A stretch of 37,853 bases of DNA. Source: a virus. Lineage: Duplodnaviria > Heunggongvirae > Uroviricota > Caudoviricetes. The stretch is taken from IMG/VR virus record IMGVR_UViG_2851971941_000003; one strand, 5' to 3'. The notes below the pieces were generated by a model. The model worked only from the letters and a program-made list of their open reading frames with translations, was not told the DNA's origin and searched no databases. This document shows positions 2,485 to 36,485 of this stretch, one piece after another (the first letter of the stretch is position 1; each line of letters begins with the position of its first letter). The position numbers and the translations under genes were made by a program.

Positions 2485-3069
2485 TTACTCCGGATATTTA
2501 AAAATTACGTAGGTATGAGACGGACAGAGTTTGTTAAGCACACATTCGACAACGGTGTCGCCCCAGATACGCAGTGCGGAATCACAGGGATCGCCACATG
2601 TCATCCAGGTGGTGTTTGTGGCGGCTGGCATGTTGACCTGCCAGTAATACCGCCATTCCGGCGCATTCACCGCGTCAGTACAGGCCGATGAGCAGGTGAA
2701 CGTGCTTTTGTCGTATCGCGTGATGGTAGCGTCTGGTCTGCCCAGGGCAGCAAGCTGTGCAAGATAAAAATTCTCGTTGATGCCGCCCGCCAGGTTAACC
2801 TTCGCATCCAGCCGTTGCTGACGCTGGCGAAGGGTCTGTGTCCCTGCGGGAATACATTCATCCGGCAGACCGCACAGACGCTCCCAGCGGTTTATCAGTT
2901 CAGTGGTGGTGCGCGGATCCAGCTCCCGCATCAGGGCATCCGCACGCTGATGAACGCGGGTTAATGACGGTGCCGCACCGGCAATCGACGGATCGCTGGC
3001 TGACCACGCCGGACCGGGGGGCAACAGTGCCGACAACAGACGGATGTAATCATCGTTTGTCACGTCCAT
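2485..3069 (-). CDS. Baseplate/tail protein, Mu gp48 / YmfQ (DUF2313)-like
   Basis: 194 aa; position between the baseplate J-like gene and the fibre gene as in Mu-like tails; family assignment from memory. Confidence 0.6.
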
Positions 3070-4118
3070 GAAATCGTCCCCAGTACCGCCAGTTCATTTT
3101 TTGCAATGGAGATATTGTCTGCCGGTGCAAGCAACTGATGGCTGTATTCCCCGTTCGCACCGGAAATCGCCTCACTGATACGCGATACCTTCAGTTCTCC
3201 CTGCGGATAACCATCACGCAGCAGGAACGAACGCAACTCCGCGGTGATGGCAGCCCGTATTTCCGGTGTGTCCGGCGTCACGCGGATATGAAAATCCACC
3301 GTATGTGCCACCGGCCTGAACACATACAAATCAGAGCCTGCCACCGGGGCCAGTGGCCCGATATGTTGTCTTGCCGCCGTTTCCGTTGATTCTTCCGGAA
3401 TGGGATTAATCAGGTCACTGCTGGCAATCATCACACCGACAGTTCCCGTTCCCATCCAGTGACGGTATGTCCATGCGCGGGTAATGCCGGGCACTTCTTT
3501 AGCCCAGACGACATAGTCCCCGTCAGCCCCGCCCTGCGGCGTCCAGTAATACCGCTCAATGACGCGGGCGCGCCACGTTTCCAGCTCTTCAGTATCAAAT
3601 CCGCCTGTCAGGGTGTCAGCCACACCGGAAGACGGCAGACCATTCACCGGCGTGACCAGGATTAATGCCGTACCGTCGTCAGCGTTACCGACCGCGCCTG
3701 CACTTGAGCAGGCGATCGGCACGCGCAGGACACCACCGGAGCTGGTTGCATCGGCAGTTGCCGTGTACTGAACCAGGTCATCGCGCTGAATAACACTCCC
3801 GGCGGTCACCTTCAGGCCATCGCTGACACCTTCCCAGCGCATATACCCGCTGGCAGCCGTGGCCCCCTTGCGCGGACACCGTTTCATCGCAGCATGTCGC
3901 GCCAGCCAGGACTCATCGCACAGGTCAGGCAGCATGTTCATTGCCAGATAATCGATGTACCCGTAAACCGTATGCAGCGCCGCCGCATACACCTTTGCCC
4001 GCACGTCTTCATCCATGCGCCGGAGCGTGTCGCTGACGTCCAGCCTGGCGAATAAATCGTTACGGAGCATACTGATATTTTCTGCCAGCGTCGGGCGCTG
4101 AAATTCACTGTCCGCCAT
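3060..4118 (-). CDS. Baseplate J-like protein (Mu gp47 / P2 gpJ family)
   Basis: 352 aa; size and position in a Mu-order tail module. Confidence 0.7.
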
Positions 4119-29804: not shown

Positions 29805-30364
29805 GCGTTAGTTTCTCCACAGTCACGACACGCCACGGCGCCCGGAGCTGCACACTCGCGGGCGTCATTACTTTCTGAAATGCAAAAGATTTTGTAGACC
29901 AGTGCTGCATGCTCCTGCAGCTTCGAAATTGAGAGATACAGCTCGTCGTTAATTGCTGTCTTCTCATGCGGTTCCACTACACCGTCTTCGATTGCTGAAC
30001 GAATCTGTCTGGAATAACTGCCAATCTGTTCAATGACTTCCAGCAGGCGCTGGTTGATATCAGCGTTGTCCACATCCTCGACGTCAGGAAGAGACACAAA
30101 GACGCCATTTGCAGACTGCGCCACAGCATCAGCAATGAAGTGAGTGCCACCAGCACGCTGTAAAACCATTGCCCATCCCAGCGGGAAAATCTGATCGCCA
30201 TCTGCACGAAGGCGGTTGAATAAAGCGTTTTCTGTTACATCGAGCCAGTCAGCCGCTTCAGCGTAACCCCCCGGCAACGCCGCGATAGTTTTTCTGACAG
30301 CTTTCACGTACCACTCAGGCTGTTTTTCTATTTTCCAGTGATGCTTACCCACGATTAGCCTCAT
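29801..30364 (-). CDS. Early regulatory protein in the cII position, function uncertain
   Basis: 187 aa directly downstream of the cro-like gene; C-terminal Cys-rich tail. Confidence 0.4.
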
Positions 30365-30395
30365 CGTTCTGTGGTTAAAAATTGAAAGTGTTCTG

Positions 30396-30596
30396 CTAAT
30401 CTTTCGGATAGATATCCGGTCTTAAGTCAGATTTCGTAATTGCACCTGACGTGCATTGCTCAAGTTTTTTAGCCAGCACAAAACTGGCTTTTTTATAGCC
30501 ATTGAAAACCAGCCGTAAGTAGCCAGGTGTTGAGCCAACTTTTCCGGCCAACTCGCCCTGCTGTTCTTTGGTTAAAGAGTCCCAATACGCTTTCAT
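30396..30596 (-). CDS. Cro-like small HTH regulator
   Basis: 66 aa from the internal ATG (MKAYWDSLTKEQQGELAGKVGSTPGYLRLVFNGYKK...), with GGAGG 8-9 nt upstream; divergent from the repressor gene. Confidence 0.6.
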   Translation of the reverse strand: MKAYWDSLTKEQQGELAGKVGSTPGYLRLVFNGYKKASFVLAKKLEQCTSGAITKSDLRPDIYPKD

Positions 30597-30601
30597 ACAA
30601 T

Positions 30602-30620
30602 ATGTACCTCCGGTATACAT
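30602..30620. promoter_or_regulatory. Candidate operator (imperfect palindrome ATGTACC-N5-TATACAT)
   Basis: In the cI/cro intergenic region; same half-site as the other operator candidates; overlaps the cro ribosome-binding region. Confidence 0.4.
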
Positions 30621-30650
30621 ATTACATGATTGAAATGAACCTTCAAGATA

Positions 30651-30671
30651 CTTGTACCTTAACGGTACAAG
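30651..30671. promoter_or_regulatory. Candidate operator (perfect palindrome CTTGTACC-ttaac-GGTACAAG)
   Basis: 8-bp perfect inverted repeat with 5-bp spacer between the divergent cI and cro starts. Confidence 0.45.
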
Positions 30672-30686
30672 GGTTTTAATTTTGTT

Positions 30687-31361
30687 ATGAAAACAATCCA
30701 TGACATCCGGCGGTCTAACGCCAGAAAACTGAGAGATGGTGTTGGCGGGAATTCTTCCTTTGCCACTATGATTGATCGCGAGCCAACCCAGACCAGCAGG
30801 TTTATGGGAGATGGTGCTACTAAAAATATCGGTGACAGCATGGCACGACACATCGAAAAATGTTTCGACCTGCCTGTCGGATGGCTCGATCAAGAACACC
30901 AGACAACGAACATCACAAAAAAACCTGATGTTTCAATCACTAATAAACAAATCACATTAGTCCCTGTCATATCATGGGTACAGGCCGGAGCATGGAAAGA
31001 AGTTGGATATTCTGAGGTTGATTTGAGCACAGCAGAAACGTATCCCTGCCCTGTCCCCTGTGGGGAAATGACTTATATCTTGCGGGTGATAGGTGATTCA
31101 ATGATTGATGAGTACCGCCCGGGAGACATGATTTTTGTCGATCCTGAAGTACCTGCCTGCCACGGTGACGACGTTATTGCATTGATGCACGATACAGGTG
31201 AAACCACCTTCAAAAGGTTGATAGAAGATGGGACACAGCGTTATCTCAAAGCGTTAAACCCAAACTGGCCTGAGCCTTACATTAAGATCAACGGTAATTG
31301 CTCTATAATTGGTACAGTGATTTTCTCAGGAAAACCAAGAAGATACAAAATCAAAGCCTAA
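30687..31361 (+). CDS. CI-type prophage repressor (HTH plus S24 LexA-like autopeptidase domain)
   Basis: 224 aa; C-terminal S24-like region with the GDSM serine motif (RVIGDSMIDEY), found in lambda CI/LexA-type repressors. Confidence 0.85.
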   Translation: MKTIHDIRRSNARKLRDGVGGNSSFATMIDREPTQTSRFMGDGATKNIGDSMARHIEKCFDLPVGWLDQEHQTTNITKKPDVSITNKQITLVPVISWVQAGAWKEVGYSEVDLSTAETYPCPVPCGEMTYILRVIGDSMIDEYRPGDMIFVDPEVPACHGDDVIALMHDTGETTFKRLIEDGTQRYLKALNPNWPEPYIKINGNCSIIGTVIFSGKPRRYKIKA

Positions 31362-31373
31362 TCAATGTTTATG

Positions 31374-31396
31374 AACCTGCTTCGGCAGGTTTTTTT
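31374..31396 (+). terminator. Rho-independent terminator after the repressor gene
   Basis: aacctgc-ttcg-gcaggtt hairpin followed by seven T. Confidence 0.55.
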
Positions 31397-31400
31397 ATAC

Positions 31401-31429
31401 TTGACAATGTACCTTTGAGATACATAATG
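31401..31429 (+). promoter_or_regulatory. pL-like promoter with overlapping operator
   Basis: Consensus -35 TTGACA, 16-17 bp spacer, -10 CATAAT. The operator-like palindrome ATGTACC-N5-GATACAT (31407-31425) sits in the spacer and a further ATGTACC follows at 31427-31433. Confidence 0.45.
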
Positions 31430-31554
31430 TACCCAAGCGAAACAACAAACAGGCAGGTCGTCCACGAAGTAGCCCCCTGGAGCATATGAAGTCCAGGATG
31501 ATTCGTTGAGTCATGTTGTGCCACTAGGCACTCATGTTAAAGCAGGTGTATGAA

Positions 31555-31830
31555 ATGAAAGTCCAGATTTTAAACAATAACTGTGAAGTCGTTTGGTCAT
31601 ACGACATAGCCGCCCCTGTAGATCAGAGCGGCGATAGCTGGACCAATGGGAAACATCAGATTATGGCTGGAGTTGTGTTCTCTTTACGCCGTGCTTTGGA
31701 ACAGGCTGAAGTATTTCCATCAGACCCTGAATGGAAATGGCCTTTTTCTATTTGTCCAAATTCGGAGAGCACATTTCAGAAAATTGGTCAGAAAGTCGCA
31801 CTCGAAGAGCATCAGCCAACTGTTTCCTGA
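31555..31830 (+). CDS. Hypothetical immunity-region protein (rex-slot), first gene after the pL-like promoter
   Basis: ORF with AGGTG 6 nt upstream of the internal ATG at 31555; AT-rich; no recognisable family. Confidence 0.4.
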   Translation: MKVQILNNNCEVVWSYDIAAPVDQSGDSWTNGKHQIMAGVVFSLRRALEQAEVFPSDPEWKWPFSICPNSESTFQKIGQKVALEEHQPTVS

Positions 31831-31993
31831 TTTTTTCAGGTAACTCGTCGGCATCGCAGAAACAACAACGCTCGATCATGTTGAAAGCCGATTCGTAGAA
31901 CTGTTTCTGCTGAGTGTCGCTGAGACAGGAAAAGAGCGACGTTACGATGATTTTATTAATTGCATTATCAAGTTCTTTTTCATCAAAAGTCAT
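31748..31993 (-). CDS. Hypothetical protein convergent with and overlapping the preceding ORF
   Basis: 81 aa, GGAA 7 nt upstream of the ATG; Cys-containing (CCFCDADE). Confidence 0.35.
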   Translation of the reverse strand: MTFDEKELDNAINKIIVTSLFSCLSDTQQKQFYESAFNMIERCCFCDADELPEKIRKQLADALRVRLSDQFSEMCSPNLDK

Positions 31994-32248
31994 TTGATTT
32001 TCCTTTTATGTATACGGGCTTAAAAGGATACCACCGAGCCTGAAGTGGTGAAAAGACAGGCACATAACAGCTAAGTATTTTCAACCAAAGAGAATCCTTA
32101 GCGTTGTGGTGAATGCGGCTCAGCGCACGCGGGTTAAGGTTGAGGCTGACAGTCGACCTTCTGTGGATACCCACCCGCCTGGTGTGCAACCTTCGCCAGG
32201 CACCGGGAGGCACCCGGCACCACAACTTTATGCTGTGTGTAGTCCTGG

Positions 32249-32294
32249 CGGTACCAGCTTGTACCCTTGCTTCCGGCTGGTACCGTCCTTTTTA
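32249..32294 (+). terminator. Rho-independent terminator in the early-left leader
   Basis: 10-bp stem cggtaccagc/gctggtaccg with 17-nt loop, followed by tcctttttac. Confidence 0.5.
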
Positions 32295-32382
32295 CAAAAC
32301 AGAGAAGAGCATCACCGGACGACGGGCTCATAACCCAATCCATCCGGGCGGCTGCCACCGCAGGTGTTCTTCTCTGTTTTGT
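32294..32382. repeat. 15-bp perfect inverted repeat (acaaaacagagaaga / tcttctctgttttgt) enclosing a 59-nt GC-rich core
   Basis: Read directly from sequence; immediately upstream of the first early-left gene. Confidence 0.5.
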
Positions 32383-32430
32383 GGAGAAACTAATCGGCCT
32401 TGCAGGGTCGATATGATGAGGAGCAGCAAA

Positions 32431-32793
32431 ATGGCTAGCGAACGCAGTACTGATGTGCAGGCATTTATCGGGGAGCTGGACGGCGGCGTATTTGAAACCA
32501 AAATCGGCGCAGTTCTCAGTGAAGTCGCTTCCGGTGTGATGAACACGAAAACCAAAGGTAAGGTCTCACTCAACCTGGAAATCGAACCATTTGATGAGAA
32601 CCGTGTGAAAATCAAACACAAACTCTCATATGTTCGCCCGACTAACCGCGGGAAAATTTCCGAAGAAGACACCACCGAAACGCCGATGTATGTCAATCGC
32701 GGTGGTCGCCTGACTATTCTGCAGGAAGACCAGGGACAGTTACTGACTCTTGCCGGTGAACCTGACGGAAAACTCCGCGCAGCAGGTCGTTAA
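32431..32793 (+). CDS. YfdP-like hypothetical protein
   Basis: 120 aa from the ATG preceded by GAGGAG; same length and position as yfdP in the K-12 CPS-53 remnant, from memory. Confidence 0.5.
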   Translation: MASERSTDVQAFIGELDGGVFETKIGAVLSEVASGVMNTKTKGKVSLNLEIEPFDENRVKIKHKLSYVRPTNRGKISEEDTTETPMYVNRGGRLTILQEDQGQLLTLAGEPDGKLRAAGR

Positions 32794-32858
32794 TATCGTT
32801 TTTAATTAACTGATTATTTATCTCATCACTGAATATCTTTATATAGTGAGGACTTATT

Positions 32859-33683
32859 ATGTCTCAGAACTTAGACGCAACCGCAATTAATCAAATCCAT
32901 GCCCTTATTTCTGCTCAGGGTGTTAATGAAATTATCAGTAAGATTGGTGCCGATGCTGTGGCATTGCCTGAGAATTTCCGCATTCATGATCTGGAAAAAT
33001 TTAATTTAAATCGCTTCCGTTTCCGTGGTGCGCTTTCCACTGCCAGCATCGATGACTTTACCCGTTATTCTAAAGATCTTGCAGATGAAGGCACCCGCTG
33101 CTTTATCGATGCTGATAATATGCGTGCCGTCAGTGTGCTTAACCTGGGTACTATTGATGAACCAGGTCACGCAGATAACACCGCCACACTCAAACTGAAA
33201 AAGACAGCACCGTTCTCTGCTCTGTTGTCTGTTAACGGCGAGCGTAACTCCCAGAAGTCACTGGCAGAATGGATTGAAGACTGGGCCGACTATCTTGTGG
33301 GCTTTGATGCTAATGGTGACGCTATTCAGGCAACAAAAGCGGCTGCGGCTGTCCGTAAAATCACGATTGAAGCAAACCAGACCGCTGATTTTGAAGATAA
33401 TGACTTCAGCGGCAAACGCTCCCTGATGGAGTCTGTCGAAGCGAAGACCAAAGACATTATGCCAGTGGCATTTGAATTTAAATGCGTTCCGTTTGAAGGT
33501 CTGAAAGAACGTCCGTTTAAATTACGCCTCAGTATTATCACTGGCGATCGTCCTGTACTGGTTCTGCGCATTATTCAGCTGGAGGCGGTGCAGGAAGAAA
33601 TGGCTAACGAATTTCGTGATCTGCTTGTTGAGAAATTCAAGGACAGCAAAGTAGAAACCTTTATTGGTACTTTCACCGCCTGA
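32859..33683 (+). CDS. yfdQ: YfdQ-like protein (DUF2303)
   Basis: 274 aa; length and sequence recalled as CPS-53 YfdQ family. Confidence 0.7.
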
Positions 33684-36409: not shown

Positions 36410-36485
36410 TGGTGCCGATAATAGGAGTCGAACCTACGACCTTCGCATTACGAATGCGCTGCTCTACCAACTGAGCTATATCGGC
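36410..36485 (-). tRNA. thrW: tRNA-Thr (anticodon CGU), prophage integration target
   Basis: Minus-strand 76-nt sequence GCCGATATAGCTCAGTTGGTAGAGCAGCGCATTCGTAATGCGAAGGTCGTAGGTTCGACTCCTATTATCGGCACCA with clover-leaf features and CGT anticodon; next to proA as thrW is in E. coli. Confidence 0.9.

Follow-up and report, generated by a model that had tools for sequence, protein, structure and literature searches.

In bacteriophage lambda, the accessory genes rexA and rexB sit between the repressor gene cI and the left operator and early-left promoter (OL/PL), and they are co-transcribed with cI. Other accessory genes of phages, the morons in the concept of Hendrix and Juhala, form autonomous transcription units, and convergent promoters can act as switches, as in the excludons of Listeria and the pR-pL pair of coliphage 186. 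Convergent transcripts that overlap at their 3' ends are also the layout of some type I toxin-antitoxin (TA) systems, such as par/Fst of pAD1 and bsrG/SR4. Here, we analyze two small convergent open reading frames (ORFs) next to the cI gene of an SfV-like lambdoid prophage of Escherichia coli, contained in a 37,853-nucleotide (nt) stretch of viral DNA (IMG/VR record IMGVR_UViG_2851971941_000003; in the following, the window, with positions counted from its first letter). A first-pass annotation of this DNA had placed the two ORFs in a slot equivalent to that of rex and had proposed them as candidates for lysogen-expressed functions.

Judging from the comparison of diverged copies, both overlapping ORFs are real protein genes under purifying selection, and the pair is inherited as a unit. 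The best model that we can offer, with a probability of roughly 55%, is a mobile two-gene cassette downstream of PL with mutually exclusive, excludon-like expression. The two genes, referred to as the plus and the minus ORF, are the following.

31555-31830, plus strand: plus ORF, 91 amino acids (aa); orf33 of SfV, phrog_3195; constrained part residues 1-84 (to 31806)
31748-31993, minus strand: minus ORF, 81 aa; phrog_3311; constrained part residues 1-74 (to 31772)

A convergent ORF pair downstream of the repressor gene

Shigella phage SfV matches the region from 31362 to 32430 with 99% identity, and 376 complete E. coli genomes contain at least 80% of this region; the gene pair itself was found in 424 of 5426 complete E. 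coli genomes. Locally, ymfL-type and cro-type genes on the minus strand are followed by cI, the ORF pair, and then yfdP, yfdQ, yfdR, yfdS, yfdT, xis, and int, with every gene from cI onward, the minus ORF aside, on the plus strand. As first described, the two ORFs converge, each has a ribosome-binding site, and their 3' ends overlap: the plus ORF, with the Shine-Dalgarno (SD) sequence AGGTG at 31544-31548, ends with a stop codon at 31828-31830, and the minus ORF, with the SD sequence AAGGA at 32005-32001, runs from an ATG at 31993-31991 to a stop codon at 31750-31748, giving a nominal overlap of 83 nt (31748-31830). For the start of the plus ORF, the SfV annotation uses an upstream in-frame ATG at 31534 (98 aa), and the Prokaryotic Genome Annotation Pipeline (PGAP) uses the ATG at 31555 (91 aa). 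We adopted the latter, conserved start, because all diverged relatives begin with MKVQI (MKVQIL in the window). The stretch had also been called AT-rich, and its guanine-plus-cytosine (GC) content is indeed lower than that of the whole window (0.44 versus 0.51), but only mildly so; the minus ORF has a GC content of 0.41 versus 0.51 in its surroundings, and the cassette has values of 0.41 to 0.45 versus the 0.51 of the window.

Signatures of coding constraint in both frames

ORFs of at least 30 aa number 56 in 5 kb of this DNA, so that ORF size alone is no evidence of coding. Given that ORFs of this size are common by chance, we looked for diverged copies of the pair. First searches returned mainly identical copies or frameshifted copies of the same DNA, and many seemingly diverged first matches were rejected as belonging to the latter class. 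Scans of IMG/VR with two-sequence protein alignments, in which 80 loci were retained per scan, gave only loci of 99 to 100% identity, usable for polymorphism only, and a scan of species-representative genomes with the minus ORF found no relative. Diverged relatives were obtained by profile search and an exhaustive HMMER search, after which the DNA of the loci was compared. The resulting plus-ORF homologues share 46 to 88% aa identity and fall into six lineages, and distant homologues of the minus ORF were found as well (proteins P0062, P0064, P0065, and P0067). Nine sequences from the six lineages, at 60 to 70% nt identity to each other, all place the plus and the minus ATG 439 nt apart with zero indels, and both ORFs are intact in all nine; the length of the minus ORF stays between 74 and 81 aa in all diverged loci.

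We compared the window with the diverged locus L003 in the parts that belong to one ORF only, using the Nei-Gojobori proportions of nonsynonymous (pN) and synonymous (pS) differences and the numbers of substitutions at the first, second, and third codon positions.

31555-31747, plus frame: pN 0.18, pS 0.86; substitutions by codon position 17/7/37
31831-31993, minus frame: pN 0.18, pS 0.83; substitutions by codon position 15/4/30

Among the other five frames of each segment, none is both open and patterned in this way: four have a nonsynonymous-to-synonymous ratio (omega) of 0.7 to 7, and the fifth, which shares its wobble position with the real frame, has an omega of 0.24 to 0.32 but contains 4 to 5 stop codons. 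When divergence by codon position is followed along the pair in a sliding window, plus-frame periodicity extends to approximately 31764 and minus-frame periodicity begins at approximately 31795. Between the two single-frame segments lies a stretch in which neither frame appears free to vary.

31772-31806 (35 nt), both strands: dual-coding core, encoding ..[QK][VI][AG][RQ]xVA[LI]E in the plus frame and L[SA][ED]ALRxRL.. in the minus frame

Within this core, divergence at the third codon position is 0.18 versus 0.51 elsewhere for the plus frame (p = 5e-4) and 0.19 versus 0.56 elsewhere for the minus frame (p = 5e-5), meaning that both wobble classes drop to second-position levels. By this comparison, the core bears the signature of simultaneous constraint in both frames. 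On either side of the core, positions 31807-31830 track the minus frame only, and positions 31748-31771 show plus-frame constraint that is weak at most; in alleles where the plus ORF has 122 aa, the 31 extra codons have an omega of about 5.5. The C-terminal tails of both proteins thus seem to be free, and the functional proteins would therefore comprise about 84 and 74 residues, with a true coding overlap of about 35 nt.

Polymorphism among 196 near-identical copies, which represent 41 haplotypes, points in the same direction in that common variants are enriched in synonymous changes: over all haplotypes, 7/23 changes are synonymous in the plus-only part and 8/19 in the minus-only part, and 5 of the 9 single-nucleotide polymorphisms of the plus-only part that occur in at least four haplotypes are synonymous. 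Premature stops are rare, at E71 in the plus ORF and at S19 and E50 in the minus ORF. Frame-specific constraint is seen in both frames across the six lineages of related prophages, and the early suggestion that only one of the two ORFs might be real does not hold up against it.

The pair occupies the early-left position

The region between the repressor gene and the plus ORF contains the following features.

30687-31361, plus strand: cI-type repressor gene (YmfK/CohE type, Peptidase_S24 domain; Pfam PF00717, E = 1.5e-26), called cI in SfV and ymfK in E. coli
31373-31392, plus strand: intrinsic terminator of the cI transcript, with a GC-containing stem of 8 bp and a downstream T run; an annotated terminator in SfV
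31401-31428, plus strand: PL-type early-left promoter TTGACA-16-CATAAT, matching 11/12 positions of the sigma-70 consensus; the best match in 30300-32900 (2.6 kb scanned)
31408-31424 and 31428-31444, no strand: OL, two predicted cI operators with the motif TGTACC-N5-GRTACA, overlapping PL
31476-31497, plus strand: PL-leader hairpin CCTGGA-GCATATGAAG-TCCAGG, conserved, with compensatory changes in the stem

The operator motif also occurs three times between cro and cI (30603-30669). In total, the window contains 11 matches, compared with 2.8 +/- 1.9 expected, and 0/100 shuffles reach this number. Since the promoter follows the terminator of cI and is overlapped by copies of the cI operator, the two can be assigned as PL and OL, and the plus ORF, which begins 127 nt past the -10 element of PL with no ORF in between, is therefore the first gene of the repressed early-left operon. 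By sequence, this is the position of N, not that of rex. The arrangement recurs elsewhere: L003, L221, L224, L226, and L227 have equivalent terminators after the repressor unit, and in seven other immunity contexts, the repressor unit is followed by usually a terminator, by promoter-like hexamers and/or repeats shared with the cro-cI region, and then by the plus ORF. No terminator-like site was found between the two genes on either strand of 31555-31993.

The window pair and lambda rexA-rexB are alike as accessory genes that adjoin the repressor gene of a lambdoid prophage. In contrast to rexAB, however, the window pair is separated from cI by the terminator (31373-31392) and by PL/OL (31401-31444), and scans against PADLOC, Pfam, NCBIfam, and PHROGs found no similarity to RexA/RexB or other defense proteins. 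With N-type antiterminators, the plus ORF shares the place of the first gene past PL; N-type proteins have an arginine-rich RNA-binding motif at the N terminus, cannot be dispensed with, and occur in every relative. The product of the plus ORF, in contrast, has an N terminus (MKVQILNNNCEVVW) that is devoid of arginine and an isoelectric point (pI) of 4.95, and the gene can be replaced by unrelated cassettes. Separately, a rex-like position in the strict sense was noticed in a Salmonella prophage (L221), where a gene for a 384-aa HSDR_N protein (2552-3706) starts 32 nt after the repressor gene and precedes the terminator, making it a candidate lysogen-expressed defense gene.

Two side observations concern the early-left leader and the operators. 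The arms of the PL-leader hairpin read CCCGGT/ACCGGG in e14 and CCGGTG/CACCGG in L223, its loop is conserved as RCRTAYGAAR, and it is preceded by CAGGCAGGnCGnCCACGAAGTAG; in L223 (about 3000-3110), the element lies downstream of the cassette rather than upstream. Moreover, an operator-like site with two mismatches (TGGACCAATGGGAAACA) is located inside the plus ORF (31639-31655, plus strand) and is probably a chance match.

Co-inheritance and cassette exchange

The pair was found together with at least seven different repressor regions, also in Salmonella, and its spacing is always 439 nt. It even occurs beside the lysis cassette and holins of another phage (L234), with 50 to 52% aa identity, where the plus homologue points in the direction of the phage genes around it and the minus homologue is antisense to these genes. 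Across pairwise comparisons, the identities of the plus and of the minus proteins correlate with r = 0.92. As far as these loci tell, the pair is inherited as a unit, and such strict co-inheritance suggests that the two proteins act on the same process. The nominal overlap varies in length (83 nt in the window, 161 nt in L003, and 110 nt in L234).

Unrelated cassettes take the place of the plus ORF in SfII, SfIV, PhiR29, and e14. SfIV and PhiR29 have different genes on the minus strand, and in SfII, the leader and codons 1-16 of the plus ORF are retained, followed by an in-frame stop and an unrelated convergent pair (L008, 1602-1665). The part retained in SfII is nucleotide-identical, and the junction is a scar left by recombination at the left boundary of the cassette exchange. 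Deletion derivatives were observed as well: one (P0058) fuses residues 1-66 of the plus ORF to the C terminus of YfdQ, and in another, from a decayed prophage (L357), the first 200 nt from the 5' end of the minus ORF are joined to a tail-gene remnant.

A structured leader and a cargo hot spot on the minus strand

Upstream of the minus ORF, we found two hairpins, HP1 and HP2, and a candidate promoter.

32030-32049, minus strand: HP1, hairpin ACCAC-N10-GTGGT (ACCGC/GCGGT in L226), preceded by GCCTGTCTTTT at 32061-32051
32001-32027, minus strand: HP2, hairpin in which CCTTTT (32027-32022) pairs with AAAAGG (32007-32002), including the SD sequence of the minus ORF
32061-32088, minus strand: candidate minus-ORF promoter TTGGTT-16-TATGTG, a weak 8/12 match with TG upstream of the -10 element

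The succession of GCCTGTCTTTT, HP1, and HP2 lies upstream of the minus ATG in every allele, and HP1 also precedes non-homologous cassettes. HP2 begins straight after GGTAT and closes on or beside the SD sequence. It is located at the same place in 18 distinct 5' untranslated regions with differing arm sequences (CCTTTT/AAAAGG, CCTTC/GAAGG, CCTTG/CAAGG, CCTCT/AGAGG, CTTGG/CCAAG, GCTGG/CCAGC, and TCTGG/CCAGA), and this covariation argues that the nucleotides of HP2 are transcribed. We also considered TTCACC-16-TGgTATCCT (32052-32025) as a promoter inside HP1 but rejected it, because the nucleotides that follow its TAT covary with the stretch adjoining the SD sequence and would therefore be part of the RNA, in conflict with such a promoter.

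The exact 23-mer of HP1 is present in at least 120 IMG/VR contigs (loci L237-L356), and in the 100 of these with a callable ORF, an SD sequence and a start codon follow 32 to 39 nt after the 23-mer. Behind it, we found at least 12 unrelated small proteins of 61 to 163 aa, including members of the BssS and YdiH families, with the minus ORF as the most common cargo (53/100 sampled contigs). By this survey, the slot is a hot spot in which one structured leader is shared by alternative cargo genes in antisense orientation. The minus ORF resembles a moron in that it is small, antisense, and of lower GC content, has its own conserved 5' unit, and is exchangeable with at least 12 cargo genes. No flanking terminator and no consensus promoter were found for it, and, unlike a moron, it has a co-inherited convergent partner that overlaps it in coding sequence.

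Protein properties

The first-pass annotation had recognized no family for either ORF, and our scans of both proteins agree: Pfam, NCBIfam, and PADLOC gave no meaningful match, and PHROGs matched only phrog_3195 and phrog_3311, which have no assigned function. Profile searches of the PDB with both family alignments returned nothing below an E value of 0.07, and Foldseek comparisons of both models with the PDB gave no match below an E value of 2. Both proteins are small, acidic, and hydrophilic (pI 4.6 and 5.0; grand average of hydropathicity, -0.4). In AlphaFold2 models of low confidence (predicted local distance difference test scores of 47.6 and 57.9, with single-sequence jobs for the minus ORF), the plus protein is predicted to form four strands and two helices and the minus protein three helices. 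A CCxC motif of the minus protein is lost in the distant homologues.

The e14 cassette as an analogue

The closest described counterpart of the window pair in position is found in the e14 prophage of E. coli K-12, which shares with the window a near-identical end of the cI gene, an identical terminator and PL/OL, a near-identical leader up to approximately 31510, and the same HP1. The layout is alike as well, with ymfJ co-directional with cI, ymfI convergent, and a 63-nt 3' overlap. Between YmfJ/YmfI and the two window proteins, no sequence similarity was detected, making e14 the carrier of an alternative cassette rather than of a homologue.

In e14, ymfJ is induced late in the SOS response (log2 fold change of 4.05 to 4.83), together with ymfM and intE, and the YmfJ protein has been detected; ymfI changes far less than ymfJ (PMC11002266). 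The same pattern of ymfJ was reported for an SOS-inducing antibiotic conjugate (PMC10012262) and for hupAB mutants (PMC2634741), and ymfI-ymfJ is among the convergent excludons derived from RNA sequencing (PMC12288877). Given the shared PL/OL and the SOS induction of ymfJ, the plus ORF would by analogy be induction-specific rather than lysogen-expressed. For the plus ORF, the initially proposed rex-equivalent, lysogen-expressed slot is therefore at odds with the terminator of cI, the PL/OL that follows it, and an e14 counterpart that stays silent until SOS, and we infer that the minus ORF is the sole remaining candidate for lysogen expression. A genomic SELEX peak of RpoH near ymfI was regarded as uninformative, since it lies about 650 bp away inside xisE by an estimated coordinate offset.

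Proposed mutually exclusive expression and its alternatives

In the model that we favor, a two-gene cassette has been inserted just downstream of the repressor-controlled PL. The plus ORF, whose product would have about 84 functional residues and be acidic and cytoplasmic, would be made only when cI is inactivated, be it upon induction or upon infection. The minus ORF, with about 74 functional residues, also acidic and with three predicted helices, would be an antisense accessory gene behind a leader of HP1 and HP2, the latter of which encloses its SD sequence. Transcription from PL would have to cross the whole minus ORF in antisense direction on its way to yfdP through xis-int, and with no terminator in between, mutually exclusive expression is to be expected: the minus ORF would be on while PL is repressed, and the plus ORF would be on when PL fires. 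The two proteins might act in one process, e.g., as a factor of the lysogenic phase and its counterpart in the lytic phase. What we infer in this model is that the minus ORF is transcribed in the lysogen, that the two genes interfere with each other, and that their products are functional partners.

With excludons, the window pair shares convergent units without an intervening terminator, an arrangement in which the strong promoter should shut down the weak one. The geometry is found in the window itself, and transcript overlap is documented solely for the e14 analogue (PMC12288877). Unlike excludons, the window pair contains about 35 nt of overlap that are under coding constraint in both frames. 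The idea of antisense regulation, which was raised in the first-pass annotation, gains plausibility from the missing terminator and from the ymfI-ymfJ excludon.

Several observations weigh against our model. No convincing sigma-70 promoter for the minus ORF was found in 30300-32900; the best candidate, matching 8/12 positions, was missed by the sigma-70 scan and is conserved only in right flanks of the SfV/e14/SfII type. Distant homologues of the minus ORF (about 40% identity) occur without a plus partner (L231 and L232), one of the solo homologues lying between Q and a holin, again in antisense orientation, which argues that the minus protein needs no plus protein. A convergent ORF (at least 45 aa), with an overlap of 4 to 167 nt at the 3' end of the cargo gene, accompanies each of the sampled cargo families; the overlap in the window may thus just reflect tight packing where terminators must be absent. 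Co-inheritance within 439 nt can be plain linkage, and the low-confidence structural models give no pointer to any biochemical activity.

Much of this would fit two genuine small genes without a functional relation, namely an early gene close to PL and an independent antisense moron, with the overlap and the co-inheritance resulting from compaction and linkage. The lability of the nominal overlap length and the unconstrained C-terminal tails would agree with such an arrangement as well. However, the pair has stayed together in six lineages, even where aa identity has fallen to about 50%, and in two genomic settings (early-left and late or lysis), always at 439 nt, and it persists even though recombination has swapped cassettes up to codon 16 of the plus ORF in SfII. 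We therefore regard two unrelated genes as possible but less probable than the model that we favor.

A toxin-antitoxin or addiction-like module, in which one small protein is harmful and is neutralized by the other or by its antisense transcript, appears unlikely. Two small co-inherited genes in an accessory hot spot of prophages would suit such a module, their convergent 3'-overlapping layout is shared with the type I systems mentioned above, and L234 carries the pair a few genes away from a Fic/Phd module. Yet neither protein matches a TA or defense family or is hydrophobic or basic, the two partners are both conserved proteins, unlike the protein-RNA combination of type I systems, and rare premature stops occur in either gene. 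Least of all do we expect one frame to be real and the other an antisense annotation artifact: SfV and PGAP annotate the plus ORF alone, the annotators of phage 720R4 the minus ORF alone, and gene callers on metagenome loci just the plus ORF, but each frame has its own region with a pN/pS of about 0.2 and a third-position bias, the phase flips between these regions, and both ORFs are intact in 9/9 sequences, so that this explanation is already refuted as far as sequence comparison reaches.

It is tempting to speculate beyond the model of mutually exclusive expression, although we consider what follows doubtful. The pair might be a mobile two-protein switch, in which the minus protein would act as a lysogen-phase effector (e.g., by excluding or aborting other phages or by modulating the host) and the plus protein would be its lytic antidote, made from PL or, in L234, from a late promoter. 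The either/or choice would be enforced by the doubly coding 3' overlap without terminator, and the pair would be a single example from a far larger system, so far undescribed, in which antisense cargo genes lie behind HP1/HP2 leaders at a PL-proximal hot spot of SfV/e14-type prophages. If a lysogen factor and its lytic antagonist were indeed paired in this way, this would be a compact new logic for turning a prophage function off at induction.

Apart from this speculation, one member of the gene pair usually goes unannotated, and the pair provides a clean natural example of two opposite-strand protein genes that share doubly constrained sequence. With this common accessory hot spot of prophages placed past PL instead of within the cI operon, its genes are expected to be on at a different time, and the leader shared by at least 12 cargo genes offers a simple way to find and test accessory genes of the lysogenic phase in SfV/e14-type prophages.

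Neighboring features

The DNA that separates the cassette from yfdP includes a non-coding, GC-rich stretch (GC content 0.57) from 32081 to approximately 32420. Its part at 32081-32296 (plus strand) matches the full model of the Rfam family STnc100 (RF02076) with 41.4 bits (E = 2.4e-7), below the gathering score of 47; nothing in the region reached a gathering score in Rfam. The match is followed by an inverted repeat with 25-nt arms (32294-32318 and 32358-32382). PGAP labels the stretch as a frameshifted pseudogene, and the 31362-32430 query, in which the stretch lies, has a partial match in 2789 of 5426 E. coli genomes. Possibly, it is a structured RNA of the PL transcript. Finally, a tRNA gene (36413-36485, minus strand; 71.8 bits) lies near the integrase end of the prophage and is probably the attachment-site tRNA.

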